From an uncultured bacterium (GTDB taxonomy: Bacteria; Actinomycetota; Acidimicrobiia; Acidimicrobiales; VFJN01), in the NCBI GenBank assembly GCA_963813485.1, contig CAWEZE010000011.1:96178-160177 (forward strand): a stretch of DNA of 64,000 nt, written 5' to 3'. Position numbers and translations under genes: made by a program. Positions 9,558-62,118 of this stretch are shown piece after piece; within the stretch, counting starts at the first letter, position 1, and the number at the start of each line of letters is the position of its first letter. Below the pieces are notes generated by a model. That model searched no databases. It was not told the DNA's origin and worked only from the letters and a program-made list of their open reading frames with translations.

Positions 9558-9607
9558 GCTTATATGGACGATTGGCTGCGTTCAACCTGATGACATCGAT
9601 GGCCGTG

Positions 9608-10234: not shown

Positions 10235-10318
10235 CGCTAGGCGAGACTAGGTGAGGGCCGGTAGGGCATCGTTCCGGCGTTTGACGGCACCTCAGACACG
10301 CACCACTAGCGTCTCGCT

Positions 10319-14900: not shown

Positions 14901-15002
14901 CAACACGAATGTGACCACCCCTGAGGGCAGCCGCTGCTCCGCCACGGCACGATCATCGCGCGAGATCCGCGCGGAGCCCGCCTCGAATGTGCCGGTGCCC
15001 AT
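11929..15002 (-). pseudogene. Class III adenylate/guanylate cyclase - LuxR HTH - NB-ARC/AAA (STAND) ATPase - TPR protein, split by two frameshifts
   Basis: Three track ORFs (13089-15002, 12614-13138, 11929-12858) read on from one another. The domains in order are: cyclase (VTFVLSDIVGSTRLWE..ARGEGDSTF..GPAVNRAARL), LuxR HTH (LTNAEIASRLYVSERTVESHISSLLRKF), P-loop (LVGAGGTGKTRLA), Walker B (LLVLDNCEH), GLPLAIEL, then TPR-like repeats. Frame changes at about 13095-13120 and 12730-12745. Confidence 0.8.
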
Positions 15003-15109
15003 TGCGACCCGAAGGTGCGGCTGGCCACAGATGGCGTCGGTCGTTCAAGGGGCTGGCGCAGGCCCCAACCCCGGTATGCGGCCATCGAGGGCCGGGTACA
15101 CGCACGGGC

Positions 15110-15358
15110 ATGGTAACAATCCTGTGGATCATCGCCGTCGTCCTCGTGATCGCCGGCATCGTCCAACTCGTCCAAGGCCAACTGGGGCTGGGCATCGTCC
15201 TGATCGTCGTCGGGCTTCTGATCGGGCCCGGTGGTGTTTCGATCTTCGCCACCAGCTCTCTTATGGGGGTCTCGGGGGGCTTCGTCACCTGGAGGTCCAG
15301 ATCTCGTCGGTGGCCAACAGTGCTTCCTCCGCGGTCGCGAACCTGCCCACCGTCGTGA
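15110..15358 (+). CDS. GPGG-motif small membrane protein
   Basis: ATG at 15110, then MVTILWIIAVVLVIAGIVQLVQGQLGLGIVLIVVGLLIGPGGVSIF (two TM helices plus GPGG). The 35-aa Arg-rich tail overlapping the convergent gene looks unnatural, so the true stop may be earlier or lost. Confidence 0.55.
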   Translation: MVTILWIIAVVLVIAGIVQLVQGQLGLGIVLIVVGLLIGPGGVSIFATSSLMGVSGGFVTWRSRSRRWPTVLPPRSRTCPPS

Positions 15359-17478: not shown

Positions 17479-18129
17479 CTACTCGTCGCGAACGACCCCG
17501 GCCAGGCAGATGCTGGCGTATTCGGCGACGAACGCCTCGCGGTCGGCCGGCCAGGGGAACTGGGGCTTTGCGATCAGCAGCGACGTCAAGCCGTGCACCC
17601 GCGCCCAGAACCCGATTGCCAGGCGGTAGGCATCGGTGAACCCGGGGCGGAAGCGCCCGGCGTCGATGCAATCCTGGGCGCAGCGCCGGACCTGGTCGAA
17701 CGCGGCGTTGTCGCGCAGCACCACGACCTGGTACTCCTCGGGGGTGTCGTCGGCCGGGGTCATGAACAGGATGCGGTAGGGCTCGGGGTTGTCGAGGCCG
17801 AAGCGCATGTACGCGAGACCCATCGCGCGGAGGCGTTCGACGGGGTCGTCGACACCCTCGCTCGCCCTCGCCAGGAACTCGTCGAGGGCTGCGAAGTGCC
17901 GGGCGCAGACCTCGAAGATGAGGTCGTTCTTGTCGGCGAAGTGCCGGTAGATCGACGGCGGGGTGACGCCGACGCGCTCGGCCACCGCACGGATCGAGAC
18001 CGCCTCGGCGGATCCCGTCTCGAGCAGCAGCCGCTCGGTGGCGGCCAGGATCTCGTCGCGCAGCGCCGCCCCCTCACCCTTGCGGGCGCGGGGACGGCGG
18101 GAAGCGGTCGGCGGGGAAGCGGCGGTCAT
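17479..18129 (-). CDS. TetR/AcrR family transcriptional regulator
   Basis: 216-aa ORF with an N-terminal HTH, EAVSIRAVAERVGVTPPSIYRHFADKNDL. It overlaps the upstream mmpL stop by 4 nt. Confidence 0.9.
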   Translation of the reverse strand: MTAASPPTASRRPRARKGEGAALRDEILAATERLLLETGSAEAVSIRAVAERVGVTPPSIYRHFADKNDLIFEVCARHFAALDEFLARASEGVDDPVERLRAMGLAYMRFGLDNPEPYRILFMTPADDTPEEYQVVVLRDNAAFDQVRRCAQDCIDAGRFRPGFTDAYRLAIGFWARVHGLTSLLIAKPQFPWPADREAFVAEYASICLAGVVRDE

Positions 18130-30508: not shown

Positions 30509-30612
30509 GGGCGCATCGTGTCACACCATCCCAGGAGCGACCGCCACGAACCGTAGTTCAAAGCTGCCAGCCAGTGTCTCGCCCGCATGCTCGCCAAGGC
30601 TGGCCTGTGAAG

Positions 30613-31167
30613 TTATGGGCCGTGGGCCTGCTTGTCCGCCCCGCTCGTAACCTGTGCCGGCTGGGTCGTTGCGCTCGCCTTCACGATGGCCTCGATCCCG
30701 CTGATTCGGTCCTCTAGCTCGGCTCTTCTTCGATCGCTCAATAGCGACGCACCCGCGGCAATCAGCGCTGCGAGCACGACGCCTAGGAACGGCAGGAACG
30801 GAACCCACCAGGTGTCCTCCGACGGAGCGGTGACAGGCAGGATCTCGCCGTCGATTTTCACGAACTCAGGCGCGTCGTCGCCGGCGATGTCATAGACGGC
30901 GACCCCGGGGGGGCGGGCGCTCGCAGGAGGGTCTCGGTCGTCGTCGGTCTGGAAGGTCAAGATGCCGGCGATGAACGTTGCCACGAGAAGAGTCCCGGCG
31001 ATGATTCCGCCGACCAACCTCCGACGGTGCTGCCGCTTCCGCTCACGCTCGAGGCGTTCCTTCGCGTCCGCCAGGTAGTCGGTGAAGGGGGCGGAAATGC
31101 CCTGTACCAGAGCCGCCGTGGCCGCCGCCATCGCCCCAAGGTCCGTCACAGAGCCCACCGCCAACAC
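30613..31167 (-). CDS. Hypothetical membrane protein (2 TM)
   Basis: 184-aa ORF in a lower-GC patch. Two hydrophobic helices (LVGGIIAGTLLVATFIAGIL; WWVPFLPFLGVVLAALIAAGA) and a charged coiled segment. Confidence 0.45.
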   Translation of the reverse strand: MLAVGSVTDLGAMAAATAALVQGISAPFTDYLADAKERLERERKRQHRRRLVGGIIAGTLLVATFIAGILTFQTDDDRDPPASARPPGVAVYDIAGDDAPEFVKIDGEILPVTAPSEDTWWVPFLPFLGVVLAALIAAGASLLSDRRRAELEDRISGIEAIVKASATTQPAQVTSGADKQAHGP

Positions 31168-31224
31168 CCGTCCACCGGGGCGGCAGGTTAGCTGGGCGCT
31201 CGAGCCCCCAGTTCGTGTGAAAGC

Positions 31225-31300
31225 CTAAGGACCTGAGCGGATAGGCCACGTCCTCTCTCGGCTCATGGTGGGGGTTCACCACCTGACCTTCAGCTGTCAG
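31225..31300. mobile_element. MITE-like element, partial copy (one terminus only)
   Basis: cTA-AGGACCTGAGCGGATAGGCCACGTCCTCT... matches the alpha arm of copies 3 and 4. No second terminal repeat was found within 150 nt. Confidence 0.55.
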
Positions 31301-31460
31301 CAGGCCCGCCAACGGCTGTCCCGCACCCGGTGCTCGCTACATCACAGCTAATGGGACGGCGTTACCCCGTACGGGTCGGCGCCACGGCGGGCGGAGCCAC
31401 CTCCGCGCCTCGTAGGCCGAGGGGTGGACATAGCGTGCAGTCGGGACGGGGAGGTGCAGG

Positions 31461-31712
31461 GTGGTGGCGGAACCTGAGGCGGGCATGCAGCGACTTGTGA
31501 AACGCGTCGTGGGTTGGGTGATCTTGGCGGCTCTGGTCACGTGGGTGATCGTGTTGTTTTGGGCTGCCACCGGTGGATCCGCATTCGACTTCGGTCGGGT
31601 GTGGGTATGGACTGCGGTCGTGCTTCTGGGTGCTGCGGCCAGGATGACAATCGTGGCGTGGCTCGTCGACGTCACCGACCGGCGTGCGGACGAACCGACC
31701 TATCGGATCTGA
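31461..31712 (+). CDS. Hypothetical small membrane protein (2 TM)
   Basis: An 83-aa ORF between two MITE copies: VVGWVILAALVTWVIVLFWAA and VWVWTAVVLLGAAARMTIVAWLV. Start may be the internal ATG (MQRL, 31485). Confidence 0.35.
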   Translation: MVAEPEAGMQRLVKRVVGWVILAALVTWVIVLFWAATGGSAFDFGRVWVWTAVVLLGAAARMTIVAWLVDVTDRRADEPTYRI

Positions 31713-31734
31713 CCTACGCCCCGAGCTGCGTCCC

Positions 31735-31873
31735 CTAAGGACGTGAGCGGATAGGCACGTAGTCTTGACTCGCGGTGGTCAGCGCTGCCGGGGACCCGAG
31801 CTGTTGAGCTGGCGGTCGACCGCCAAATTCCACGCGTAGGCTGCACGAACCGCCCTATCCGCTCGGCTCCTAG
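31735..31873. mobile_element. MITE-like element, copy 3 (139 bp)
   Basis: cTA-AGGACGTGAGCGGATAGG ... CCCTATCCGCTCGGCTCC-TAg. It is near-identical in reverse orientation to copy 4. Confidence 0.85.
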
Positions 31874-32231
31874 CACGTCGATCGGCTGGCCGGAGCAGAC
31901 CTGGATCCGCGTCACCTGAGGCGACGCCGGTCCCAGGCGTCGCCGTCCCGCTGCTGGCTGGCTAACGGGCGTCCGGTTCACTGGCCGGCGATACAGCGAC
32001 GATGGCGGCGGGTCATCTCGCGGGCGGACATGAGAGGGCGGACATGACACAGGAACTCGCGCGATACGTACTGCTGGCGTCGGTCTCGGCGACGGTGGCC
32101 GGCGTGGTGTTCGAGGGGGTGCGGCGGCGGTTTGCGGGCACGCGGCTCGACCGGCAGTTCCGTGAACAGCACCCATAGCCGCCGCGGGACGAGGCCCGAT
32201 GCCACCGGCCGGTTCTACGCCGGCCCGAGTG

Positions 32232-32411
32232 TCAGAGCACGAACCCGGGGCCGAAGTGGTCGACGAGCGCGAGGACCAGGACACCTATGACGGCGACGCG
32301 CGCGACCACCGGCAGGCTCTTAACCAAGTCGGTGATCGTCGGCAGCCGCTTGCTGCGGACCGCCACGAACTCGTAGATCGCGGCGATGAGGCCGATGATG
32401 GCAACGGTCAC
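32232..32411 (-). CDS. Hypothetical small membrane protein (59 aa)
   Basis: Not in the track (under 60 aa). GTG at 32411, then TVAIIGLIAAIYEFVAVRSKRLPTITDLVKSLPVVARVAVIGVLVLALVDHFGPGFVL. High third-position GC. It lies immediately downstream of the Ddn-like gene. Confidence 0.4.
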   Translation of the reverse strand: MTVAIIGLIAAIYEFVAVRSKRLPTITDLVKSLPVVARVAVIGVLVLALVDHFGPGFVL

Positions 32412-36095: not shown

Positions 36096-37244
36096 CTAGA
36101 GCCGCTCGATGATGGTCACGTTGGCCTGGCCCCCGCCCTCGCACATCGTCTGCAGACCCCAGCGCCCGCCGCGGCGCTCCAGCTCGTGGAGCAGGGTGGT
36201 CATCAGGCGGGCGCCGGTGGCGCCGAGCGGGTGGCCGAGGGCGATGGCGCCGCCGTTGACGTTGACCCTGGCCATGTCGGCGCCCGCCTCCTGTGCCCAG
36301 GCGATGACCACCGAGGCGAAGGCCTCGTTGATCTCGACCAGGTCGATGTCGTCGAGGCGCATGCCGGTCTTGGCCAGCGCGTGGGCGGTCGCGGGGATCG
36401 GCGCCGTCAGCATCCACACCGGGTCGTCCGCCCGCACCGAGAGGTGGTGGATCCGGGCCCGAGGCGAGAGCCCGTGGTCCGCCAGCCCCCGCTCGTTCAC
36501 GATCAGCAGCGCAGCCGAGGCGTCGGAGATCTGCGACGAGCACGCCGCGGTCACCCGTCCGCCCTCGGTCAGGACCGGCAGCGAGCGGATCTTGCCCCAG
36601 TCGGGCTCCCGGGGGCCCTCGTCGGTGGTGCACTCGCCCAGCGGCACGATCTCGGCGTCGAAGCGACCCTCGTCGCGAGCCCGGATGGCCCGGGTGTGCG
36701 ACTCGACGGCGAACGCCTCCATCTCGTCGCGCCCGATGTCCCACTTCCCGGCGATCAACTCCGCAGACCGGAACTGGCTCACCTCCTGCGTGCCGTAGCG
36801 GGCGACCCATCCCGGCGACCCGGTGAACGGGTCGTCGAACCCCAACGCCTGGCCGGCGGTCATGGCCGACGAGATGGGGATCTGCGACATCTGCTGCACG
36901 CCGCCGGCCACGACCACGTCCATCGTCCCGGACAGGACCGCCTGGGCGGCGAAGTGGATCGCCTGCTGCGACGATCCGCACTGGCGGTCGACGGTGGTGC
37001 CCGGCACGTGCTCGGGGAGCCCGGCCGCCAGCCAACAGGTGCGGGCGATGTCGCCGGCCTGGCCGCCGATGGTGTCGACGCAGCCGAACACCACGTCTTC
37101 CACCGCCGCCGGGTCGATGCCCGTGCGCTCGACCAGGGCCGTCAGGCTGTGCGCACCCAGGTCGGCGGGGTGGACCAGGGCCAGCCCACCCCCGCGCTTG
37201 CCGACCGGCGTGCGAACTGCGTCGACGATGTAGGCCTCGGTCAT
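36096..37244 (-). CDS. Thiolase (acetyl-CoA acyltransferase, FadA6-like)
   Basis: From the ATG at 37244 (383 aa): DRQCGSSQQ, GHPLGATGAR and CEGGGQA. It overlaps the upstream gene's stop by 4 nt. Confidence 0.9.
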   Translation of the reverse strand: MTEAYIVDAVRTPVGKRGGGLALVHPADLGAHSLTALVERTGIDPAAVEDVVFGCVDTIGGQAGDIARTCWLAAGLPEHVPGTTVDRQCGSSQQAIHFAAQAVLSGTMDVVVAGGVQQMSQIPISSAMTAGQALGFDDPFTGSPGWVARYGTQEVSQFRSAELIAGKWDIGRDEMEAFAVESHTRAIRARDEGRFDAEIVPLGECTTDEGPREPDWGKIRSLPVLTEGGRVTAACSSQISDASAALLIVNERGLADHGLSPRARIHHLSVRADDPVWMLTAPIPATAHALAKTGMRLDDIDLVEINEAFASVVIAWAQEAGADMARVNVNGGAIALGHPLGATGARLMTTLLHELERRGGRWGLQTMCEGGGQANVTIIERL

Positions 37245-38332
37245 GCGCCCTGCAGGCGCTCGAGGGTGGCGGTCGCCTCGGCGGCGACGCGCTCGAGCAG
37301 CTCGGCCACCGTGGGCAGCTCGTCGATCACCCCGGTGACCTGCCCCGTCGGCAGCACGCCGACCTCGGCCTTGCCGTCCACCAGCGCCGCCTTGATGAGC
37401 ATGGGCGCGTTGGCGGCCATGGCCACCTGCGACCACGACAGCCCCTGGTTCTTGCGCATGGCCACTCCCTCGCGGACCAGGTCTGGCAGCGGCGTACCGG
37501 TCAGCCGCCGAAAGGCGAGCGCCGCCCGCAGCGCCCGCGGCAGTCGGCTCAGCGGCGAGGCCCGCTCCAGCCGGTCGACCGTCTGGGTGCGGATCACCCG
37601 TTGCGGTGCCCCGTCGAGGGCGGTCGTGACCACCGTGTCGGTCACGGCCGCCTCCAGGTAGCGGCGCTTGATTGCATCGGGCACCCGGCTCTCCCGGGTG
37701 AGCAGGAACCGGGTGCCCATGGCCACCCCGTCGGCCCCCCAGGCCAGCGCGGCCACCAGGCCACGCCCGTCGTGGAAGCCCCCGGCCGCCAGGACCGGGA
37801 TCTCGGCCCCCACGGCGTCGACCACCTGCGGCAACAGCAGCGACGTCGGGACGACGCCGGTGTGCCCGCCGCCTTCCCCACCCTGAGCGATGACGGCGTC
37901 GACGTCCCACTCCAGCATCTTCTCGGCGTGGCGCCGGGCGCCCACCGTGGGCATGACCAACACGCCTGCGCCATGGAGCTCGGCGATCGCATCCTTGGTG
38001 GGTGCGCCGGCGAAGCTGACCAGCCGGACGCCCTCCCGGACGCACAGGTCGATGCGATCGGCCAGGTCCGGCTGGTCCGCCCGCAGATTGACCCCGAAAG
38101 CGTGGGCCGTCCGCTCCTTGACGGCGGTGATCGAGTCGGCCAGTTGGCCCTGCGTCATGGTGACGGCGGCGAGGATGCCGAACCCACCCGCGCAGCTGGT
38201 GGCGGCGGTCAGCGAGGCACCCGACACCCAACCCATCCCCGTCTGCACGATGGGATAGCGGCAGCCCACCAGGTCGCAGAACCGGGTGTGGAGCGCCGGG
38301 TGCAGCGGAGAACCTGACGCTGCGTCAGACAT
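37241..38332 (-). CDS. Nitronate monooxygenase-family flavoenzyme (IpdC-like enoyl reductase)
   Basis: From the ATG at 38332 (363 aa): YPIVQTGMGWVSG, QGGEGGGHTG and LAAGGFHDGRG (NMO/2-nitropropane dioxygenase TIM barrel). Confidence 0.85.
   Translation of the reverse strand: MSDAASGSPLHPALHTRFCDLVGCRYPIVQTGMGWVSGASLTAATSCAGGFGILAAVTMTQGQLADSITAVKERTAHAFGVNLRADQPDLADRIDLCVREGVRLVSFAGAPTKDAIAELHGAGVLVMPTVGARRHAEKMLEWDVDAVIAQGGEGGGHTGVVPTSLLLPQVVDAVGAEIPVLAAGGFHDGRGLVAALAWGADGVAMGTRFLLTRESRVPDAIKRRYLEAAVTDTVVTTALDGAPQRVIRTQTVDRLERASPLSRLPRALRAALAFRRLTGTPLPDLVREGVAMRKNQGLSWSQVAMAANAPMLIKAALVDGKAEVGVLPTGQVTGVIDELPTVAELLERVAAEATATLERLQGA
38314..38328. promoter_or_regulatory. Perfect palindrome CTGACG-CTG-CGTCAG (candidate operator, copy 2 of 3)
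   Basis: It overlaps codons 2-6 of the NMO/thiolase operon, directly after the ATG at 38332. Confidence 0.55.
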
Positions 38333-38440
38333 CCGGTTCAGACTACGAGCCGGTCCGGCGGACCCGCCACCGGCCGAGACACGCCCCCTTGTGTGCGGTC
38401 GTAGCCTGGAATAGGCGGGCGCCACTAGGAGGTGCTTCCC

Positions 38441-38917
38441 ATGAGGGGTGCAAGCCTCGTCAAGCTGACCATGGCCGCCGCCGTCGGCGCGACGCTCGCC
38501 TACGTCTTCGATCCGGTCCGCGGGCGCCGGCGCCGGGCCGAGCTGAAGGATCGGGGCCGGGCGACCGTGCGCCGCGAGATGCGGGCCGCCGAACGCCAGG
38601 CCAGCTACGGCAAGGGCCGGGCGGAGGGCGTGATCCACAAGTTCCGTCACCCCCGGCCCCATGTCCCCGAGGACGACATGACGCTGGCCGACAAGATCCG
38701 GAGCGAGGTGCTCGGCCGGGTCGACGGGCCTCACCTGACGATCGACGTCAACAACCGGGTGGTGACGCTGCGGGGCGAGGTGCCCGATGAGCAGGCGGCC
38801 CAGCACGTCGAGCGCGAGGTGCGGGCGACGCCGGGCGTCAGCGATGTCGTGAACCTGCTCCACCAGCCCGGGACGCCGGCGCCCAACAAGGCCGACGCGC
38901 TCCGGGCCGAGAGCTAG
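38441..38917 (+). CDS. BON domain-containing protein
   Basis: AGGAGG SD 8 nt before the ATG at 38441. N-terminal TM/YtxH-like segment, then DDMTLADKIRSEVLGR..IDVNNRVVTLRGEVPDEQ...V..TPGVSDVVNLL (BON). Confidence 0.75.
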   Translation: MRGASLVKLTMAAAVGATLAYVFDPVRGRRRRAELKDRGRATVRREMRAAERQASYGKGRAEGVIHKFRHPRPHVPEDDMTLADKIRSEVLGRVDGPHLTIDVNNRVVTLRGEVPDEQAAQHVEREVRATPGVSDVVNLLHQPGTPAPNKADALRAES

Positions 38918-39020
38918 TGTCCCGTCCCGCCCACTGGTAGGTCGGACGCGACCGGCGTCCGGCACTCGGCGCCACTAGCGTCACGGGTCGCAAAGGGTCA
39001 CCAATCCGGGGGGCAGCGAC

Positions 39021-39848
39021 ATGAAGCGACCTGTGTCATCCGTGCTCGTCGTGGCGGCCGCGGTCGCCGCGTTCCTGTTCGCCATCGCCGGCGCGGCCGG
39101 GGCGATCACCTTCGGTCAACCGGACGGTAACCGGCACCCCAACGTGGGGGCCTTGCTCGCCGACTACGACCCCGACAGCCCGGGTCCCGACCTCCTCTGC
39201 AGCGGCACGCTCATCGCCACCGACGTCTACCTCACCGCTGGCCATTGCACGGCATTCCTCGAAGACGAGGGCATCACCGACGTCTGGGTTACCTTCGCCT
39301 CGGAGTACGACGAGGATGCTGCCGCGCCGCCCGGGATCATCCACGGCTCCTACGTCACCAACCCGGACTTCGGGTTCTCCGGTCCCGGCGGCGCATCCGA
39401 TCCCCACGACCTCGCCGTGGTGCTGCTAGACACCGCCCCCGGCCTCACCCCCGCCGAGCTGCCGACCGAAGGCCTGCTCGACGAGCTGAAGGCGAGCCAC
39501 GAGCTGAAGAGCGCCGCGTTCACGCCCGTCGGCTACGGCACGGTCCGCGAGGACAAGACCGGCGGGCCGCACGCCCTGTTCTTCGACGGCGTCCGCCGGT
39601 TCGCCACCCAGACCTTCAAGTCGCTCCAGGGGGCGTGGCTCGGCCTGTCGCAACAGCCGTCGACCGGCGACGGTGGCACCTGCTTCGGCGACTCGGGCGG
39701 GCCGCACTTCCTCGGCGGCGCGGGCAGCAACCTGCTGGTCGCGACGACCGTGACGGGCGACTCGCAGTGCCGCGCGTTCGACAAGGCCTACCGGCTCGAC
39801 ACGGCGTCGGCCCGCGAGTTCCTGGGCCAGTTCGTCGATCTGCCCTGA
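39021..39848 (+). CDS. Secreted trypsin-like (S1 family) serine protease
   Basis: Signal peptide MKRPVSSVLVVAAAVAAFLFAIAGAAGA. Catalytic triad motifs TAGHC, DLAVVLL and GDSGGP. Confidence 0.88.
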   Translation: MKRPVSSVLVVAAAVAAFLFAIAGAAGAITFGQPDGNRHPNVGALLADYDPDSPGPDLLCSGTLIATDVYLTAGHCTAFLEDEGITDVWVTFASEYDEDAAAPPGIIHGSYVTNPDFGFSGPGGASDPHDLAVVLLDTAPGLTPAELPTEGLLDELKASHELKSAAFTPVGYGTVREDKTGGPHALFFDGVRRFATQTFKSLQGAWLGLSQQPSTGDGGTCFGDSGGPHFLGGAGSNLLVATTVTGDSQCRAFDKAYRLDTASAREFLGQFVDLP

Positions 39849-39880
39849 GCGCGACCGAACGGAAGGGCCGGCCCGCCCGG

Positions 39881-39906
39881 CGGAACGGGCTGACGGGACG
39901 CTAGGC
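39881..39906. repeat. 26-nt short dispersed repeat (copy 2 of 2)
   Basis: GCGGAACGGGCTGACGGGACGCTAGG; see 22317-22342. It includes the stop codon of the CoA-transferase B gene. Confidence 0.5.
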
Positions 39907-40665
39907 GGGGTCAGGCACCTCGCGCTCCCGGGCGCCCTCGGGATCGATGACCTCGCGGATCAGCACGAGCTCCTCCGGCGTCGGCGGCCGCGACTCGGGG
40001 ACGTCGGCAGGCACCACCAGCTCGAAGCCTGTGGCCGCCAGGACGTCGTCCACGCCCACACCGGGATGGATCGAGCACAGCCGCATACGGCGATCGGGGG
40101 TTTCGAAGTCGAACACGCCGAGGTTGGACACCACCCGGCGAATGTCGACGAAGCGCGCCGCCGGCCCCAGCTCCGCGGCCCGGTCCCAGCCGATGCCGGT
40201 GACGGTGTCGACCTTCTCGACGAAGACCTTGGGGCCGTGGCTGGGCACCCAGTAGCTGGTGGGGTCGTTGATGGTGTTACCAGGAGCGCCGCGATAGCCG
40301 AGCAGCTGCACCGTGGGCCGGTCGTAGTCCCCGATGGCGGCGAGGTTCTGGTTGCCGTAGCGGTCGACCTGCGAGGCGCCCATCATCACGTGGCGGCGAC
40401 CCGACCACACCCAGTCGAACATCGACCGGTACGGGTTCCAGTACTCGATCACACGCTCGTCGGGCGGGACCACTGCCCGGTCGTTGGCGACGAGCGTGGC
40501 TTCGCCGTCGGTCATGGCCAGGTCCGGCTCGAACGTGGCTCGCGCCAGACGCCCGCCGATCATGGGAATGGTGCCGATCGGGTTCGCGAGCAGCTCGCCG
40601 TCGCCACGAAAGCACTCGGCGACCGCCACCACGCACACCTCGGCTCGGGTGGCGTGCGGGCTCAT
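39901..40665 (-). CDS. CoA-transferase subunit B (IpdB-like)
   Basis: From the ATG at 40665 (254 aa), glutaconate-CoA-transferase B-subunit-like. It overlaps the subunit A stop by 4 nt. Confidence 0.8.
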   Translation of the reverse strand: MSPHATRAEVCVVAVAECFRGDGELLANPIGTIPMIGGRLARATFEPDLAMTDGEATLVANDRAVVPPDERVIEYWNPYRSMFDWVWSGRRHVMMGASQVDRYGNQNLAAIGDYDRPTVQLLGYRGAPGNTINDPTSYWVPSHGPKVFVEKVDTVTGIGWDRAAELGPAARFVDIRRVVSNLGVFDFETPDRRMRLCSIHPGVGVDDVLAATGFELVVPADVPESRPPTPEELVLIREVIDPEGAREREVPDPA

Positions 40666-41576
40666 GTCGCTTCTCCCCGGCTTCCGCGGCCGCTCGGGCT
40701 CCGACGCTCGCTGAGGTCCCCGACCTTGCGCTGGTAATCGGCCTCGGGGATGTCGATCCACTCGGCGCGGAACGCCGCCCATGCCTCGGGTGAGCGGGCC
40801 GACGCCGCGTAGGCCCTCTGCACCGCCTCGTCCCGGGGGTAGTCGGGTTCGCACAGGGTGAAGTGGGCGCCGCCCGGAGCGGACACGACGCCATCGACCA
40901 TCATCCGGCTGATCCGCAGCTGGTGGGTGCACCCCTCGTGGCGCAGGTCTGCGGTCTCGACGATGCGCTCGGCCGATATGAAGCGCCCGCCGGTGGGGGC
41001 GGCCTGGAGCATGAGATCGTCCCAGTACAGGTCGGGACCGAGGAACATGGCATTGCCGCGGCGGTCGGCCCGGTTGAGGTGGCAGATGCTGGCGTCGAGC
41101 CGAAAAGCCGGCATGGCCACCAGCTCCTCCCTCTCCCCGTCGTGCCCGGCGACCGGCGACGTGAACGTCCGCAGTTCGCCGTTGTCGCGCAGCAGGTCGG
41201 AACCCAGCCCCGCCCGGCTGGGCAGGAACGGCAATCGCCACGCCGCCGCCTGCAGTCCGAGGTGGAAAAGCCCCTCGTCGAGCGGCTCGTCCTCGATGGC
41301 GCCCGCCTGCCGGGCGGCGCGGAAGTGGGGCTCGAGGGGGATGGAGTCCAGCGAAACGAAGGCGTAGATCGCCTTTCGGACTTTGCCGGCGGCGCACAGC
41401 AGGCCGAGGTCGGGGCCGCCGTGGGTGACGATCACAAGGTCAGTGAGGTCGCTGCGCACCATGGCGCGAACGATCGACATCGGCTTGCGCCGGCTCGCCC
41501 ATCCGCCGATGGCGATCGTCATGCCCGAGCGCAGCCGGCCGACCACCTCCTCCTCGGTCATCAGCTTGTCTGCCAT
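40662..41576 (-). CDS. CoA-transferase subunit A (IpdA-like)
   Basis: 304 aa: MTIAIGGWASRRKPM..VTHGGPDLG..; family I CoA-transferase alpha subunit. Confidence 0.8.
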   Translation of the reverse strand: MADKLMTEEEVVGRLRSGMTIAIGGWASRRKPMSIVRAMVRSDLTDLVIVTHGGPDLGLLCAAGKVRKAIYAFVSLDSIPLEPHFRAARQAGAIEDEPLDEGLFHLGLQAAAWRLPFLPSRAGLGSDLLRDNGELRTFTSPVAGHDGEREELVAMPAFRLDASICHLNRADRRGNAMFLGPDLYWDDLMLQAAPTGGRFISAERIVETADLRHEGCTHQLRISRMMVDGVVSAPGGAHFTLCEPDYPRDEAVQRAYAASARSPEAWAAFRAEWIDIPEADYQRKVGDLSERRSPSGRGSRGEAT

Positions 41577-41583
41577 CTGCGCC

Positions 41584-42345
41584 TCAGCGGGAGGTGTCGG
41601 TGTCGCGGCCCTCGACGAAGGCGTCGCGGTGCTCGTCGGCCACCCCCGACAGGTTCAGCTCGAAGGTGAAACCCTGTTCGAAGCGGTAGCTACGCCGGAC
41701 GTCCCAGAGGTCTATGCCGTTGAGCGACTCCTTGGCGGCGCGGATCACGGTCGGCGACTTGGCGGCGATCGCCTCGGCCACCTCGAGTGCCGCCGCCCGC
41801 AGTTCGTCGCGGGGAACCACTCTGAGGACCGATCCGAACGCCGCCAGCTCGTCGGCGGTGGCGGTCGCCGCGGTGTAGACCATGGCGCGCATCTTGTGCT
41901 GGGGGACCAGCCGCGCCAGGTGGGTGGCGGCGCCCAGGGCACCGCGGTCGACCTCTGGCAGCCCGAATGTGGCGTCGTCGGACGCCACCACGATGTCGGC
42001 GTTGCCGACCAGGCCGATGCCGCCGCCGAGGCAGTAGCCGTGCACCGCCGCCAGGACCGGCACCTTGCACTCGTAGACCGCGGCGAACGCCTCGAAGCAG
42101 CCCCGGTTGGCGCCCACGAGGGCGTCGAAGCCCTCGCTCGCCTGCATCTCCTTGATGTCGACGCCGGCGTTGAATCCCCGTCCCTCGGCCCGCAGGACGA
42201 CCGCCCGCACCGCCGCGTCCTCGCCGAGCTCCCGCACGGCCGAAGCCAGCTCGAACCATCCGGCCACGGTCAGGGCGTTGACCGGCGGGTTCTCCATCAC
42301 GACCTCGGCGACCCCGGAGTCGTGGCGCTCGGTGGTGATCGGCAT
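41584..42345 (-). CDS. Enoyl-CoA hydratase/isomerase (crotonase; EchA20-like position)
   Basis: 253 aa: NPPVNAL..RGFNAGVDIKE..AAVHGYCLGGGIGL. Confidence 0.88.
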   Translation of the reverse strand: MPITTERHDSGVAEVVMENPPVNALTVAGWFELASAVRELGEDAAVRAVVLRAEGRGFNAGVDIKEMQASEGFDALVGANRGCFEAFAAVYECKVPVLAAVHGYCLGGGIGLVGNADIVVASDDATFGLPEVDRGALGAATHLARLVPQHKMRAMVYTAATATADELAAFGSVLRVVPRDELRAAALEVAEAIAAKSPTVIRAAKESLNGIDLWDVRRSYRFEQGFTFELNLSGVADEHRDAFVEGRDTDTSR

Positions 42346-42373
42346 CCGGCAGCAGCCCTCGGCTCGATGGAGT

Positions 42374-42388
42374 CTGACGCTTCGTCAG
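42374..42388. promoter_or_regulatory. Perfect palindrome CTGACG-CTT-CGTCAG (candidate operator, copy 1 of 3; extends to an 8+3+8 dyad at 42372-42390)
   Basis: 29-43 nt upstream of the crotonase/CoA-transferase operon ATG (42345). Confidence 0.55.
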
Positions 42389-42478
42389 ACGGCCGACGCA
42401 ACGTAGGTCGGCGCCCTCACCGCTAACAACCCGCCCGATTCCCTGACGGTGTAAGGCCACGTCTACTCTCTCGAAGCG

Positions 42479-45481: not shown

Positions 45482-46492
45482 TCAGGGGGCCGAGGATGGG
45501 GTCTGGGCCGGCGTGTCGCGGTTGACCCAGCCCGGATCGGCGTACCGCGCGCCGACCGGCGTCAGGCGCTCGAGGCGGGCCACGTCGTCGGCGGACAGCT
45601 CGAGATCCAGAGCCGCCACGTTCTCTTCGAGGTACCTGCGGCGCTTCGTCCCGGGGATGGGAACGACGTCGTCGCCCTGGGCCTGCAGCCAGGCGAGCGC
45701 AACCTGCCCGGGTGTGGCGTCGTGGCTGGCTGCGATCTCCCGCACCACCGCCACCAGCTCGAGGTTGCGCTCGAGGTTCTCACCCTGGAATCGGGGCTGG
45801 GTGCGGCGGAAGTCGTCGCCCTGGAGCTCGTCGAGGCTGGACACCGCGCCGGTGAGCAGGCCCCGTCCCAACGGGCTGTAGGGCACCAGCGCGATGCCGA
45901 GCTCCCGGCAGGCGGGCACGATCTCGGCCTCGATGTCGCGCGAGAACAACGACCACTCGGTCTGTAGCGCGGCGATGGGGTGCACGGCCGCAGCCCTGCG
46001 GACCGTGTCGGCCGACGCCTCCGACAGCCCGAGGTGACGCACCTTGCCGGCGTCGACCAGCTCGGCCATCGCACCCACCGTCTCCTCGATCGGCACCTCG
46101 GTGTCGGGCCGGTGCTGGTAGTAGAGATCGATGTGGTCCACGCCCAGGCGTTCCAGCGAGGCGTCGCAGGCATGCCGTACGTATTCGGGGTCGCCGCGGA
46201 CGCTGCGGACGTCGAGGCCGTCGGGATCGATGAAGATCCCGAACTTGGTGGCCAGGACAACATCGTCCCGGCGGCCGGCGATGGCCCTTCCTACCAACTG
46301 CTCGTTCTCGCCGAAGCCGTAGATGTCGGCGGTGTCGAGCAGGGTGATGCCGAGCTCGAGGGCCCTGTCGATGGTGGCCGTGGCCTCCGCGGCATCAGGC
46401 GTGCCGTAGGCGAAGCTCATGCCCATGCAGCCGAGGCCCTGGGCCGACACGGTTGGTCCGGAGCGCCCGAGGGCGCGATGGGGTATTGCCAT
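45482..46492 (-). CDS. Aldo/keto reductase
   Basis: From the ATG at 46492 (337 aa): [36 protein letters not shown] (AKR catalytic tetrad context). Confidence 0.9.
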
Positions 46493-46530
46493 GGCCTGCT
46501 CCTTGGAGGTGAGGACGGGGACTGCGCGGG

Positions 46531-46995
46531 TCAGGGGTCGCACATGCCGCCGTAGGTGGCGATCTTGAAATCGATCACGTCGAGCGCCGCCTGGAGCTCG
46601 ACGAGCCGCTCGCTCACCTGGCTGCGGTGGCGCTCGAGCAAGGCGAGGCGCTCGGTTTCGTTGCCAGGTCCGGCGTCGACCAGCCGGAAGTACGCCTGGA
46701 CGTCGCGGATGGGCATGGCCGTGAGCCGAAGGCGCGTGATGAACACCACGCGCGCCAGCTCTGCGTCCGTGTACCAGCGCCGTCCGGCGTGGTCGCGGGG
46801 GACGTCCAGAAGGCCGATGCGCTCGTAGTAGCGCAACGTGTGCGCCGTGACGCCCGTCCGCTCGGCGGCCTCTGCGATCGGCAGGGACTGCGGCCCGTCG
46901 GGGGGCAGGGTCGGAGCCGGAGCAGTGCACGCGGTCGAGGCGGGGTCCTCCACTTCGACGACGTCGACGGATGGCTGGGCGAGCGCAACGGTCAT
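46531..46995 (-). CDS. MerR family transcriptional regulator
   Basis: [26 protein letters not shown], then a coiled-coil dimerisation helix and a C-terminal Cys. Confidence 0.88.
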
Positions 46996-47053: not shown

Positions 47054-48512
47054 TCAGACCCCGATCTTGTGCCACGGCCCCCAGATCGCGAAGCTCATCC
47101 CGCGGCTTGCCTGGATGTTCACGAACAGCGTGTGCCCGTCGGGGTCGAAGGTTGCGCCCGCGAATTCGTCGTTGAACCGGTTGGCGCCAGTGGAGCTGAC
47201 CAGTCGGTTCAGGGCGATGTCCCACAGCTTCCCGTTGGCGGACAGGCCCCGCACGAAGTTGTCGTTGACGTTGTCCTCGCACAGGACGAGCGTGCCCCGC
47301 TTGCTGGTGGTGACGTTGTCGGGGAAGTCGAGCGTGTCCGGTCCCGGCGACTGGAAAACCAGCTTCAGCCGTTCCGACGAGATGTCGTAGGCCCAGATCT
47401 GCCCGGAACCGTTGCCCCAGCCCTGCACCGTGTCACTGGTGCCTGGCTCGGCCGGGCCGCCACCCTGGGTCGAACAGAAGTAGATGGTTCCGCGGTCGTA
47501 GACGGCGCCCTCGAGCCGCGAGAACCAGGCCGCGCCCTGCGCTCGGCCCTGGTTGCCGACATGGTTGAGGGCCTGGTCGTTGGTCGTGGGTGCCGTCTGG
47601 CCGGGCGTGAACGGGAACGTGGGGTCAGGGATCGTCGATATCGACCCACGTGACCCGGTAGCGGGCGTTCGCCGGGCTGCGTGCGCCGCCAGGTCGGCGC
47701 TGGGCGTGCCCTTGACGGCCAGCATCTGCAGCCGCCCCCGGTTGACCAGACGGCCGACGTCGAGCGGATGGCGGCGAGGGATGTAGCGGTACAGGCCCGA
47801 AGGGAACCCGAAGTTGTCCTCGGTCAGGTAGAGCACACCGTGCCGGGGATCGAAGGCCACGGCCTCGTGCGCGAAACGCCCGGCGGCCGTGATCGGCTCG
47901 CGATCGGACTCGCCGCTCGCGGGTACCTCGAAGATGAAGCCGTGCCGCTGGGTGAGCGGCACGTTCGAGACACCGGTGAAGTCGGGGCCGACGTCGGGCC
48001 CGTTGATCGTCTCCTCGCAGCTGATCCAGGAGCCCCACGGCATGCGCCCGCCCGAGCAGTTCATCTGCGTGCCGTTGAGGCTGGTGCGGGCGCCGACCAC
48101 CTCGCCGAACCGGGTCACCTCGGTGGTGGTGGTGCCGCCACCGGCCATGGTGTCGTAGGCCTTGGCTGGCGTCGCCAAACGGCCGGCGCCGGGTTGTTGA
48201 TCTCGTGGTTGCGGACGAGGAGGACGTTGCCCCGTCGCCGCGGAACGCGGCCATGCCGTCGTGGCGCCCGGGCAGCACGGTGCCGTCGTCGAGCAGCACG
48301 GTCTGCTCGGTGTCGTGGAACGAGCGGTACTGGAATCCCTCGGGCAGCCACAGTCGCACCTGTCCGTCCCGCAGGTCGGGAACGGGACCCAGCGTGGGGT
48401 TGGGCGACGCAGCGACAGGTCCGGCCACGAACCCGGCGAAGGGGCCGGCGAGGGCGGCGCCCCCGGCCACCGCCGTACCGGTCAGGAACGTGCGTCGATC
48501 GATGCGTGTCAT
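47054..48512 (-). pseudogene. PhoX/DUF839-family secreted phosphatase-like protein with a Tat signal; about four frameshifts
   Basis: Tat signal MTRIDRRTFLTGTAVAGGAALA. Text then runs ..HDGMAAFRGDG | GNVLLVRNHEINNPAP | AKAYDTMAGGGTTTTEV...CEETINGP...YLTEDN... | SPANARYRVTWVDIDDP | DPTFPFTPG...LCEDN..FVNIQ across three frames. Shifts at about 48230, 48170-48195, 47675-47682 and 47625-47630. Confidence 0.75.
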
Positions 48513-48632: not shown

Positions 48633-48878
48633 ATGGAGGAGACGACCGTGGACGCTCGAACACGCAAACTCGCGGGCTGGGTTATCGCGGCGATCGGTGC
48701 GATCATCGCCTTCCTAGGGGTCTTCGCAGGCCCGATCGGCCTCGGTGACGACGACTTCGGTGGGCTACAGATTGCCGCCGTCATCATCGGGCTCGTCGTG
48801 GCTGGCATCGGCGTGGTTGTGGCGCGCTCGCGCCCCAGCGTCGTAGAGCAGACGACCGCCAGCCCGTCCGAGACCTGA
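48633..48878 (+). CDS. Hypothetical small membrane protein (2 TM)
   Basis: 81 aa: LAGWVIAAIGAIIAFLGVFAGPIGL and LQIAAVIIGLVVAGIGVVVA. Confidence 0.4.
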   Translation: MEETTVDARTRKLAGWVIAAIGAIIAFLGVFAGPIGLGDDDFGGLQIAAVIIGLVVAGIGVVVARSRPSVVEQTTASPSET

Positions 48879-48955
48879 ACCCGTTCCCGCGTCGTTTTCA
48901 CGCGGTCCTCGCGAGAAACGACGCCGGAGCTGGGCGCTACGGGTCGAGGTTGCCT

Positions 48956-51382
<2,427 letters not shown>

Positions 51383-52325: not shown

Positions 52326-52727
52326 CTAGGCGAGCCAGCGGCTGAGGGACTCGACCACGCAGGCGGGTTGGTCGGCGCCGTCGACTTCGACGGTGATGAG
52401 GATCGTCGTCTGCACGCCACCGGGGATCTCGTCACAGGCCACCAGTTCGGCCGTGCCGCGCACCCGGTTGCCCGCGAGCAGGGGCGCTGGGAACCGCACG
52501 TTGCCGACGCCGTAGTTGACGCCCAGCGACGCGCCGCGGACCTCCACGATCTGGGGCAGGAACAGGTTGGTGAGCGCCAGGGCGAGATAGCCGTGGTCGC
52601 GGTCACCGGTGGCGGTGGCGAAGCGATCGAGGCGATCCGAGGTGATCTCCAGCCAGTCGCTGGTGCCCAGCCGTCGGCCCGCCGCGGCCCGCACCTCGTC
52701 CAGCGACCTGAGCACCGTCTGCGCCAT
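52326..52727 (-). CDS. MaoC-like (R)-specific enoyl-CoA hydratase/dehydratase hotdog protein
   Basis: From the ATG at 52727 (133 aa): ..SDWLEITSDRLDRFATATGD...LGVNYGVGNVRFPAPLLAGNRVRG... Confidence 0.7.
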   Translation of the reverse strand: MAQTVLRSLDEVRAAAGRRLGTSDWLEITSDRLDRFATATGDRDHGYLALALTNLFLPQIVEVRGASLGVNYGVGNVRFPAPLLAGNRVRGTAELVACDEIPGGVQTTILITVEVDGADQPACVVESLSRWLA

Positions 52728-52738
52728 CGGACCTCGAG

Positions 52739-53563
52739 TCAGGGATGCTGGGAGCTGACGCTCACGACTTCGCCGGTCATGTAGCTGGAGTAGTCGCTGG
52801 CGAGGAACGCGATCACCGTCGCCACCTCCCACGGCTCCGCGGCGCGGCCGAACGCCTCGCGCCCGGCCAGCTCGTCGAGCAGCTCGTCGCTCGTGACCTT
52901 GGCCAGGAACGGGTGCATCGCCAGGCTGGGCGCCACCGCGTTGACGCGCACACCGAAGGGCGCCGCCTCGAGGGCGGCGCTGCGCGTGAGCGCCATGACC
53001 CCCGCCTTGGCGGCGGCGTAGTGCGCCTGCCCCGCCTGGGCCCGCCACCCCAGCACCGAGGCGTTGTTGACGATCACGCCCGAACCCTGGCCGCAGAGGA
53101 TCCGCAGGGCCGCGCGGGTGCAGCGGAACGTGCCGGTGAGGGTCACGTCGACGACCCTGTGCCAGTCATCGTCGGTCATCTCCACCAGGTCGGCCGTACC
53201 GCCGAGTCCGGCATTGTTGACCACCACGTCGATCCGTCCGTGCCGGTCGGCGGCAGCGGCGAACAGTTCCTGGACCTGCAGCTCGTCGGTCACGTCGCAG
53301 GGGACCGCCAGCGGTTGTTCGCCCGCCCTGGCGGAACCGATGGTCTCGGCCAGCTTGGCCAGTTCGGCGACCGTCTCGCCGAGCCGGCGTTGGTGTGCGT
53401 CGCTGATCACCACGGTGGCGCCCTCGAGCAGGAGGCGCCGGGCGGCGGCCGACCCGATACCCGTGCCGGCGGCGGCGGTGACGACCGCGACCTTGCCGGC
53501 CAGCAGGCCGTGCCCAGCCGGCTCGGCCGGCGGCGGGGGCACCGGCGGGCGCGGATCGCTCAT
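52739..53563 (-). CDS. SDR family oxidoreductase (3-oxoacyl/3-hydroxyacyl-CoA type)
   Basis: From the ATG at 53563 (274 aa): TAAAGTGIGSA, NNAG, YAAAKAG. Confidence 0.88.
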   Translation of the reverse strand: MSDPRPPVPPPPAEPAGHGLLAGKVAVVTAAAGTGIGSAAARRLLLEGATVVISDAHQRRLGETVAELAKLAETIGSARAGEQPLAVPCDVTDELQVQELFAAAADRHGRIDVVVNNAGLGGTADLVEMTDDDWHRVVDVTLTGTFRCTRAALRILCGQGSGVIVNNASVLGWRAQAGQAHYAAAKAGVMALTRSAALEAAPFGVRVNAVAPSLAMHPFLAKVTSDELLDELAGREAFGRAAEPWEVATVIAFLASDYSSYMTGEVVSVSSQHP

Positions 53564-53681
53564 GAGAAGACCCCGACTCGGTCGGAGGCCGGCAGGACCC
53601 GTGAGCGGAGGGGAGCGGGCGGGCGTCGCCGGGGCGCTTCGCGCCCAGGGCTGTGCCTCCTGGTTCGCTCGCTCCGTTCGC

Positions 53682-54854
53682 TCACCGGGGCTCCTTGGGT
53701 AGGCCAAGGGCCCGTTCGCCGATGATGTTGCGCTGGATCTGGTTGGACCCGGCATAGATGGTGTCCGCCCGACTGAACAGGAACAGCCGCTGCAGGGCCG
53801 AGTTCTCGGTCGCCATTGCGTCGGCGCCGAGGACGTCCATCGCGAGCTCGCCCAGCCCCCGGTGGAACGTCGCCCAGTAGAGCTTGCCGATCAGCGCCTC
53901 GGGACGCAGCGCGCCCGGCTCACTGCCCGCGAGGGTGCGGAGCGCATTGAGCCGCATGATCTCCAGCCCGATGTGCGCCCGCGCAACCCGTTCACGCACG
54001 ACGGGGTCGTCGACGGTGCCAGTCCGGCGCGCCGCGGCGACGATGGCGTCCAGTTCGTTGCGGAAGTTGAGCTGCTGGCCCAGCGTCGACGCGCCCCGCT
54101 CGAACGACAGTGTTCCCATGGCGACACCCCAACCGTCCCCCACGGCGCCCACCACGTTCTCCGCCGCCGTGCGAGCGCCGTCGAAGAACACCTCGTTGAA
54201 CTCGCTGTCGCCGGTGAGTTGCACGATCGGTCGGACCTCGACGCCGTCCTGACGCATGGGCACCAGCAGGTAGGAGATGCCCGCGTGACGTGCGGTGCCG
54301 TCCTGCGCCGGCGACGTGCGCGCCAGCACGAAGCACCAGTCCGCCCAATGGGCGAGCGATGTCCAGACCTTCTGACCGTGGATCACCCAGTCGTCGCCGT
54401 CGAGCGCCGCGCTGGTGGCGATGTTCGCGAGATCGCTGCCGGCGTTGGGCTCCGAGTAGCCCTGGCACCACAGCTCGGTGCCGGCCAGGATCGGTGGCAG
54501 GAAGCGCCGCTGCTGCTCGGGTGACCCGAAGGCGATGACGGTTGGCCCCAGCAGGCCCTCGCCGATATGGCCCACCCGTCCCGGGCCCCTGGCCCGGGCG
54601 TACTCCTCCAGGAAGACCACCTGTCGCCACAGCGACAGCCCCCGGCCGCCGTGCTCCTTGGGCCAGCCGACGCACGTCCAGCCGTGGGCGCCGAGGTGGC
54701 GCTCCCAGGCCAGCCGCTCCTCGAACAGTGCGTGCTCGTCGCCGGGACCGCCCCGGTCCCGGACGGCGGCGAACTCGCCGGCGAGGCTGTCCTCCAGGAA
54801 CGAACGGACCTCGTCGCGGAAGGACCGGTCGTCGGCGTTCTCCCGCAGCTCCAC
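53682..54854 (-). CDS. Acyl-CoA dehydrogenase
   Basis: 390 aa: WCQGYSEPNAGSDL, WTSLAHWADW, YAGSNQIQRNIIGERALGLP. Confidence 0.9.
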   Translation of the reverse strand: MELRENADDRSFRDEVRSFLEDSLAGEFAAVRDRGGPGDEHALFEERLAWERHLGAHGWTCVGWPKEHGGRGLSLWRQVVFLEEYARARGPGRVGHIGEGLLGPTVIAFGSPEQQRRFLPPILAGTELWCQGYSEPNAGSDLANIATSAALDGDDWVIHGQKVWTSLAHWADWCFVLARTSPAQDGTARHAGISYLLVPMRQDGVEVRPIVQLTGDSEFNEVFFDGARTAAENVVGAVGDGWGVAMGTLSFERGASTLGQQLNFRNELDAIVAAARRTGTVDDPVVRERVARAHIGLEIMRLNALRTLAGSEPGALRPEALIGKLYWATFHRGLGELAMDVLGADAMATENSALQRLFLFSRADTIYAGSNQIQRNIIGERALGLPKEPR

Positions 54855-54921: not shown

Positions 54922-54936
54922 CTGACGCCCCGTCAG
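54922..54936. promoter_or_regulatory. Perfect palindrome CTGACG-CCC-CGTCAG (candidate operator, copy 3 of 3)
   Basis: 68-82 nt upstream of the GTG start (54854) of the ACAD-SDR-MaoC gene string. A further 7-bp hairpin, GTCGGTC-GCA-GACCGAC, lies at 54869-54887. Confidence 0.55.
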
Positions 54937-62028: not shown

Positions 62029-62118
62029 TGGCGGAAGGTGTGGGATTCGAACCCACGGTGACCCGGAGGCCACAACGGCTTTCGAGGCCGCCCCATTCGT
62101 CCGCTCTGGCAACCTTCC
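62029..62118 (-). tRNA. tRNA-Ser (anticodon CGA)
   Basis: 90 nt. Acceptor GGAAGGT/ACCTTCC, 3-bp D stem, anticodon stem GCGGC/GCCGT with loop CU-CGA-AA, long variable arm, T-arm GTGGG-TTCGAAT-CCCAC, and an encoded CCA. Confidence 0.92.

Follow-up and report, generated by a model that had tools for sequence, protein, structure and literature searches.

The closest described counterpart of the system considered here is KstR2 (Rv3557c), a TetR-type repressor of Mycobacterium, Rhodococcus and Nocardioides. KstR2 is the HIP-CoA repressor of the steroid ring C/D (HIP-type) pathway, in which FadD3 is the HIP-CoA synthetase (PMC5380842), and its box, AnCAAGnnCTTGnT, is found in the mycobacterial Rv3549c-Rv3550 (SDR/echA20; SDR, short-chain dehydrogenase/reductase), kstR2 and Rv3560c-Rv3561 (fadE30/fadD3) regions (PMC3068626), with a similar box reported in Nocardioides (PMC7593942). 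Its targets are echA20, ipdAB, ipdC, fadA6, an SDR gene, fadE30 and fadD3. In this work we describe a 64,000-nucleotide stretch of DNA (hereafter the window; contig CAWEZE010000011.1, positions 96,178 to 160,177, assembly GCA_963813485.1) from an uncultured bacterium of the Acidimicrobiales, in which counterparts of these genes are marked by a different palindrome, CTGACG-N3-CGTCAG (CTGACGNNNCGTCAG; hereafter the dyad). From its conservation and position we regard it as fairly probable that the dyad is the operator of a dimeric helix-turn-helix (HTH) repressor, most likely an autoregulated TetR_N + TetR_C_38 protein of the TetR family encoded elsewhere in the genome.

As in the KstR2 system, the proposed regulator is a TetR-type repressor, the operator is short and palindromic, and the sites occupy equivalent intergenic positions. 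The operators themselves are distinct: the KstR2 box AnCAAGnnCTTGnT is 14 bp long with a 2-nt centre, whereas the dyad spans 15-19 bp around an N3 centre. The preliminary description of this DNA had given the KstR2 box as different, which agrees with the published sequence (PMC3068626), and neither KstR2 nor KstR boxes are present at the window sites. The single CAAGnnCTTG of the window, at 9190, has no relation to the sites, and the relatives' crotonase and nitronate-monooxygenase promoters have none. Further differences are that the candidate TetR carries another C-terminal domain (TetR_C_38) and has no more than generic TetR similarity to KstR2, that the predicted dyad regulon is much broader than the KstR2 regulon and extends beyond the Actinomycetota, and that no KstR2 orthologue adjoins it. 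KstR (Rv3574), which as a TetR repressor controls genes of steroid and lipid catabolism, also has an operator (TnnAACnnGTTnnA) unlike the dyad.

Exact dyads occur three times in the window, at 38314-38328, 42374-42388 and 54922-54936; the preliminary description had reported these three and no fourth, and a pattern search together with shuffling bears this out. At the window's G+C content of about 70%, 100 dinucleotide-preserving shuffles gave an expectation of 0.01 exact dyads per window, and none of the 100 contained three (0/100); together with the dyad's conservation at orthologous promoters in dozens of genomes, this refutes a chance or compositional origin of the three copies. When up to two mismatches are allowed there is no excess (9 observed vs 8.0 expected). 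Each of the three exact copies stands at the 5' end of an acyl-CoA catabolic unit on the minus strand. Site 1 (42374-42388; CTGACG ctt CGTCAG; position weight matrix (PWM) score 26.1) lies 29-43 nt upstream of the ATG of a crotonase gene (42345) and extends to a perfect 8+3+8 palindrome at 42372-42390 (GTCTGACG ctt CGTCAGAC), just as first described. Site 2 (38314-38328; CTGACG ctg CGTCAG) had been placed over codons 2-6 of a gene for a nitronate monooxygenase (NMO)-type protein, which is essentially correct: it begins 1 base past the ATG (38332-38330), at the second base of codon 2, and extends as far as the first base of codon 7. Site 3 (54922-54936; CTGACG ccc CGTCAG; PWM score 15.7, with weaker flanks) is confirmed by gene calling and Pfam to lie upstream of an acyl-CoA dehydrogenase (ACAD)-SDR-MaoC unit. 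Its spacing is atypical, being 67 nt upstream of the ACAD GTG (54854) and 10 nt past the stop of a co-directional 848-aa open reading frame (ORF), so that its geometry is unlike that of sites 1 and 2. A search for further contigs coding for exactly the window's ACAD or MaoC-like protein, meant to show site 3 in close relatives, retrieved neither product. This ORF (54947-57493, minus strand) has a G+C content at third codon positions (GC3) of 0.94 and a very strong coding signal, and a Pfam search of it returned no match.

Two further occurrences in the window deserve mention. The sole other near-copy of the dyad, with one mismatch, is at 12925-12939 (CTGACG ata CGTCAT, CTGACGataCGTCAT; PWM score 12.6), between a LuxR/AAA ORF and a TPR ORF. 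It falls within a region of lower G+C (8100-15300, GC 0.65-0.67) and weak coding signal that holds the LuxR/AAA/cyclase-like ORF (13089-15002) and the TPR ORF (11929-12858). A lone CTGACG half-site on the plus strand, at 42444-42449, stands about 55 nt past site 1 toward the divergent cupredoxin gene and is kept in six loci of the window's clade.

The operator proposal of the preliminary description had been tied to conservation of the dyad at orthologous promoters in close relatives, and we looked for this in the surroundings of IpdA homologues in species-representative genomes, 72 loci in all (given L numbers below). Almost all of the Acidimicrobiia loci (IpdA identity 96-67%) have the dyad, with at most one mismatch, in two places: before the crotonase gene and on the NMO start. 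About 45 Acidimicrobiia genomes keep it at the same promoters, and the crotonase orthologue is preceded by it in 37 distinct loci, while at the NMO start it takes the form 'ATGT CTGAC[G/A] nnn CGTCAG'. The named nearest homologues of the locus come from metagenome-assembled genomes (MAGs) of Acidimicrobiales or Acidimicrobiia, these labels being the depositors' own, and the same locus occurs on metagenome contigs, the longest of 1.28 Mb. Long Acidimicrobiales assemblies with the dyad-marked ipdAB cluster include ERZ25039469:contig_76721 (1.28 Mb), which belongs to the window's own species, CAVWNW01, CAWJGJ010000001.1 (3.3 Mb) and OY970363.1 (4.1 Mb). The crotonase gene is in many genomes divergent from an SDR gene, with a constant 41 nt between the start of the latter and the middle of the dyad. 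Further genes preceded by the dyad in more distant genomes are ACAD orthologues (8-43 nt from the start in L039, L044 and L163), FadD3-like AMP-ligases (L039 and L043) and a ChsH2-type gene. Orthologous promoters keep the dyad while the surrounding intergenic DNA diverges. In a matrix of 65 distinct sites the 12 half-site positions are 86-100% conserved, the 3-nt spacer is near-random and T/A is preferred at the next positions outward, giving the extended consensus wT-CTGACG-N3-CGTCAG-Aw. None of the proteobacterial ipdAB loci among the 72 has the dyad, and it is likewise absent from the Ilumatobacter loci L032 and L034. L032 encodes a KstR orthologue (E = 2e-31) and carries TAGAACnnGTTC boxes. 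Loci of the Ilumatobacter type (L032:9190-9235, L034:9205-9235 and L041:9960-10000) have, in the dyad's stead, an AT-rich element resembling ATCTAAAAGATTA immediately before the crotonase gene.

The position of the dyad relative to putative promoter elements is equally constrained. Actinobacterial -10 elements follow the rule TAnnnT. On the minus strand of the crotonase promoter a putative -10 of this form, TACGTT (42400-42405), lies exactly 11 nt upstream of site 1, and a tentative -35, TTGTTA (42424-42429), lies 18 nt upstream of that -10 with TTGT(T/C)C kept in relatives. Alignment of the crotonase promoters gives the order TTGT(T/C)C, 18 nt, TAC(C/G)TT, 11 nt and dyad, and TAnnnT occurs exactly 11 nt upstream of the dyad in 29 of the 37. 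At the NMO gene the putative -10 is TAGTCT (38340-38345, minus strand), 7 nt upstream of the ATG; in 26 of 28 NMO loci TAG(T/G)CT is found 10-12 nt upstream of the dyad and 6-8 nt before the ATG, and 'ATGT' directly abuts the dyad in 26/28. A -10 element shortly before the ATG is the usual layout of leaderless actinobacterial mRNAs, and this arrangement implies that the NMO transcript would be leaderless, with the dyad at approximately +4 to +18. NMO codons 2 and 6 are invariably TCT and TCA, which make up only 1.7% and 2.3% of the Ser codons in window genes, and such invariant rare codons at the NMO start point to a DNA-level constraint on the coding sequence. Orthologous conservation, the fixed 11-nt spacing to the putative -10, the forced rare codons and the intergenic bias of the wider set of sites given below all support the operator interpretation of the preliminary description.

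The genes behind the dyads were called on GC3, with domains and families assigned by Pfam and NCBIfam, and all are on the minus strand. The crotonase (41584-42345, 253 aa; Pfam ECH_1) passes the NCBIfam equivalog NF005925/PRK07938 (432 bits vs a cut-off of 260) and is EchA20-like. It is followed by a COCHEA-CoA-hydrolase-type alpha subunit resembling IpdA (40662-41576, 304 aa) and by an IpdB-like beta subunit (39901-40665, 254 aa), both matching solved structures: the former matches IpdA 6CO6 and 6CON at E = 2e-96 and 2e-91, the latter IpdB 6CO6_B and 6CON_B at E = 8e-84 and 3e-79, as against only approximately 1e-20 for glutaconate CoA-transferase in each case. The beta subunit reads TDGEAT where RHA1 IpdB has TDGEAL, M. 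tuberculosis IpdB has TDGEAQ and glutaconate CoA-transferase has VESG. RHA1 IpdB has Gly57 in place of the catalytic-Glu context of the transferases (PMC5380842). Since the HMMER alignment near the gap is ambiguous, the lack of that context in the window protein rests on motif identity with IpdB. By these matches the window subunits would be of the IpdAB type and not type I CoA-transferases. Site 2 begins the pair formed by an IpdC-like, nitronate-monooxygenase/FabK-type flavoenzyme (37241-38332, 363 aa; Pfam NMO, 1.4e-75), whose nearest NCBIfam model is FabK at a score under its cut-off, and a FadA6-like thiolase (36096-37244, 382 aa; Pfam Thiolase_N + Thiolase_C) whose gene overlaps the NMO gene by 4 nt and which passes the equivalog NF005865/PRK07801 (681 bits vs a cut-off of 591). 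IpdC itself has been described as FabK-like (PMC5380842). The unit behind site 3 (52326-54854) consists, by Pfam, of an ACAD (53682-54854), an SDR (52739-53563) that passes the equivalog NF005880/PRK07831 (436 bits vs a cut-off of 336) and a MaoC-like protein (52326-52727). PRK07938, PRK07801 and PRK07831 presumably cover mycobacterial EchA20, FadA6 and Rv3548c. The IpdAB structure matches, the TDGEA motif and the NCBIfam equivalogs support the HIP-like gene content (echA20-, ipdA/ipdB-, ipdC- and fadA6-like) that had been proposed for this predicted cluster.

No regulator gene adjoins any of the three sites in a Pfam scan of the window, and the gene survey thus agrees with the preliminary description on this point. 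Apart from a TetR and a MerR gene taken up below, the regulators of the window are a DtxR, a CsoR, a GntR-aminotransferase, a MarR-GNAT and the LuxR/AAA ORF. A window TetR gene (17479-18129), approximately 20 kb away and beside an MMPL fragment, was rejected on its TetR_C_33 domain, different recognition helix and dyad-free surroundings. In relatives, unlabelled ORFs of about 200 aa near the cluster proved to be PNPOx, TauE, nitroreductase and MiaE-like proteins, not regulators.

A strong candidate emerged from other dyad loci, which modifies the earlier statement that the regulator is unidentified: none is encoded beside the sites, as had been said, but a TetR family with the TetR_C_38 domain, encoded outside the window, can now be proposed. 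In five dyad loci we found TetR proteins (family A) with 40-75% full-length identity, the HTH sequence GTSPATFYQYF and the Pfam architecture TetR_N + PF19352 TetR_C_38. Their genes lie inside a dyad-preceded operon in four of the five, arranged as dyad, AMP ligase, SDR and TetR in two loci (L095 and L102), as dyad, isochorismatase and TetR in L190, and as a dyad-preceded operon ending in ACAD and TetR in L082. From round 2 onward the iterative hidden Markov model (HMM) search strayed from TetR genes to MerR HTHs, and only first-round TetR matches were therefore used. In the reverse direction, all six loci that were chosen by TetR homology alone and had enough upstream sequence carry a dyad (PWM >= 24.7) directly before the TetR operon (L196:7374, L198:7405, L199:7406 and 7500, L201:6216, L203:8571, which equals L204:8015, and L205:7459). 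In total, a TetR_C_38-family gene is linked to the dyad in 10 other loci and none is so linked in the window. The recognition helix is invariant among the dyad-linked family A proteins and differs in unrelated TetRs. Family A is very large, with members labelled as Acidimicrobiales (MCU0310179.1) and as Myxococcota. A homologue with a similar helix (VSAATFYVYF), WP_162986913.1 (gene D3Y57_RS03250), is encoded on a plasmid of the cultured Sphingomonas paeninsulae YZ-8, divergent from a CoA-transferase/AMP-ligase/ECH/SDR operon and with CTGACGatgTGTCAG in the shared promoter region; the presence of this TetR-dyad pair in a cultured strain makes the hypothesis directly testable. To the extent covered by our literature searches, the dyad returned primer matches only, and TetR_C_38/PF19352 returned nothing. 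In L082 two overlapping dyads, 12 nt apart (9832-9858), stand before a single operon containing the candidate TetR gene.

The structural model of the family A protein (pLDDT 89, pTM 0.81) has a TetR fold whose nearest solved folds are EthR (TM 0.72-0.82) and then the acyl-CoA-binding FadR and FasR. By sequence its nearest solved relative is likewise EthR (E approximately 3e-10). The TetR-type FadR of Bacillus and Thermus and FasR of M. tuberculosis are acyl-CoA-responsive and near structural neighbours of the model, yet they share only 13-20% identity with the candidate, recognise unrelated operators and belong to other C-terminal domain families. EthR (Rv3855, M. tuberculosis), although the closest solved relative, is only about 20% identical and has a different target gene and operator; upstream of ethA it occupies a long operator in multimeric form. 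AibR of Myxococcus was also considered and set aside, its operator being different and having a 2-nt spacer.

We envisage that a dimeric TetR repressor binds wT-CTGACG-N3-CGTCAG-Aw. At the echA20-ipdAB-like and ipdC-fadA6-like promoters the dyad would cover approximately +4 to +19, 11 nt downstream of the putative -10, where a bound repressor would block RNA polymerase. The TetR_C_38 repressor would be autoregulated through the same dyad. Its probable releasing ligand is a CoA thioester produced by the AMP-ligase whose gene often shares a transcript with the TetR gene; the effector is suggested by this co-transcription and by analogy with KstR2/HIP-CoA and TetR-type FadR/acyl-CoA. KstR2, to which we liken the candidate, is autoregulated and responds to the CoA thioester of a ligase encoded in its own regulon (PMC3068626, PMC5380842). 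The predicted regulon would comprise many paralogous CoA-dependent catabolic operons beyond HIP-type ring cleavage, and the TetR_C_38 system would functionally replace KstR2 in these Acidimicrobiia.

The breadth of this regulon is suggested by a scan of metagenome contigs for TCTGACGNNNCGTCAGA, which gave at least 120 matches. Among the matches listed, 83 of 120 loci are on contigs of >=60% G+C, and the sites on these high-GC contigs are intergenic in 74 of 85 cases (87%, vs 12% expected at 88% coding; p = 7e-56), and their median spacing from a gene start is 36 nt. The 37 low-GC loci listed look like chance matches, ORFs containing 31 of their 38 sites. The listed sites adjoin genes for ChsH2/DUF35 OB-fold proteins (10), Amidohydro_2 (9), SDRs (9) and ACADs (8), followed by family III CoA-transferases (5), AMP-ligases (4), ECH (4) and Amidohydro_3 (3), and more rarely by aldehyde dehydrogenases (2), luciferase-like monooxygenases (2), a P450, a thiolase and a TauD-type dioxygenase. 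This broad flanking gene set indicates a CoA-dependent catabolic regulon that is not HIP-specific. The earlier view that the dyad marks a HIP-like set thus holds for the crotonase-ipdAB and NMO-thiolase units and fails as a statement of specificity, as the flanking genes are far broader; on sequence grounds the predicted regulon is a broad acyl-CoA catabolic one, in more than one phylum.

It is tempting to go further. In a more ambitious reading, possible but in our judgement doubtful, one TetR_C_38 repressor and the dyad would form a cross-phylum master switch in Acidimicrobiia, Myxococcota-labelled MAGs and some Sphingomonadales, controlling tens of operons per genome and displacing KstR2 and perhaps KstR. 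With the same reserve, its targets would include ACAD, SDR, Amidohydro_2, DUF35/ChsH2, CaiB-type CoA-transferase, AMP-ligase, P450 and ipdAB genes. If true, the range of substrates open to these Acidimicrobiia, which abound in soil and water, would be defined by the regulon.

Regulation in the Acidimicrobiia is, to our knowledge, essentially unstudied because almost all members are uncultured. On the main reading, with no need of the more ambitious one, the conserved operator offers a purely sequence-based means of joining dozens of paralogues with poor annotation (amidohydrolases, DUF35 proteins, family III CoA-transferases, ACADs and SDRs) in a single co-regulated catabolic network. The locus would also illustrate that genes of the steroid ring C/D (HIP) type may come under a regulator that is not KstR2, a non-orthologous regulator displacement in which the operator positions are kept, and the NMO start, with an operator within the first codons of a putatively leaderless gene and two rare codons forced by it, would be a clear case of regulatory constraint on coding sequence.

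Several observations weigh against the operator-TetR_C_38 proposal. A consensus promoter scan of the E. coli type finds no promoter at the sites, the elements given above being inferred from the TAnnnT rule and conservation. Site 3 is without a -10 at the 11-nt spacing and is 67 nt from the ACAD start, and the ACAD has its own putative -10, TACTGT, 6 nt before its GTG; simple occlusion hence does not explain site 3, which we regard as an operator-like site in an atypical position. As for the regulator, neither the window nor the 72 ipdA loci contain a family A TetR gene (six-frame search included), none could be placed on a contig of the window's genome, and its presence in this organism is inferred from its occurrence in other Acidimicrobiales. 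No dyad lies within 7 kb of a Streptomyces plasmid homologue whose recognition helix is identical, and plasmid homologues of Novosphingobium and Azospirillum, with diverged helices, are also without it. Finally, a second pair of TetRs (family B) is dyad-linked too.

The operator might instead serve another protein, namely a diverged KstR2 orthologue with altered specificity, a family B TetR or an unlinked HTH protein, which we judge unlikely overall. The target genes and site positions do mirror the KstR2 regulon, and no family A gene has been traced to the genome that the window comes from. However, a KstR2-like gene is present in none of the loci, where the TetRs resemble KstR (L032) or generic TetRs; no TetR gene stands beside the thiolase, and the TetRs present are not KstR2-like. 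The family B proteins (L161:503-1147 and L177:516-1187) share 41% identity and the HTH sequence ALHYHFGSR, their recognition helix differing from that of family A. Their genes are in a dyad-preceded thiolase operon in L161 and beside a dyad-preceded ACAD in L177, but this amounts to two loci only, in one of which the gene is outside the dyad operon. It is the retrieval of the dyad in 6/6 loci chosen by TetR homology, together with the invariant recognition helix, that sets the TetR_C_38 family above these candidates.

A syntenic MerR-family regulator (46531-46995) binding the dyad to activate or repress the lipid operons is a far less probable explanation. The window's MerR-family gene, approximately 4 kb from site 1 and NmlR-like although under the NCBIfam cut-off, is followed by an aldo-keto reductase (45482-46995 in all, minus strand), and such a pair lies approximately 4-8 kb from the ipdAB cluster in several genera (six loci). 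MerR operators sit between the -35 and -10 of long-spacer promoters, whereas the dyad is downstream of the putative -10 and not centred between the two; the MerR promoter is itself without a dyad, and on these two grounds, geometry and a dyad-free promoter of its own, the protein was rejected. It is, moreover, NmlR-like and paired with an aldo-keto reductase, and the dyad is kept without a nearby MerR in distant genomes (L037, L043 and L044) and in metagenome loci.

Hardly plausible, and given almost no credence here, is a palindrome that acts as RNA (hairpin, terminator or processing site) or as a repetitive extragenic palindrome-like repeat, for although the dyad can fold into a 6-bp stem with a 3-nt loop and site 3 lies just past a stop codon, both arms are sequence-identical over deep divergence with no compensatory changes around a variable loop, a T-run and a terminator-like call are both absent, Rfam gives no match to the dyad, its position is fixed relative to the putative -10 and partly upstream of or at the predicted transcription start, and it co-occurs with one TetR family. 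Constant arms without compensation, no Rfam match and no terminator argue for DNA recognition by a protein rather than RNA structure.

Elsewhere in the window, the H+-pyrophosphatase gene is split into two overlapping ORFs, and it is intact (773-807 aa) on the sister contigs L002 and L003. Fragmented-looking ORFs at 48765-51382, 47054-48178 and 30521-32284 (all minus strand) cover the H+-pyrophosphatase, PhoX and another stretch, and the splitting of all three suggests frameshift errors in this assembly. The only Rfam match of the window at gathering level is a tRNA gene at 62032-62118 (minus strand).

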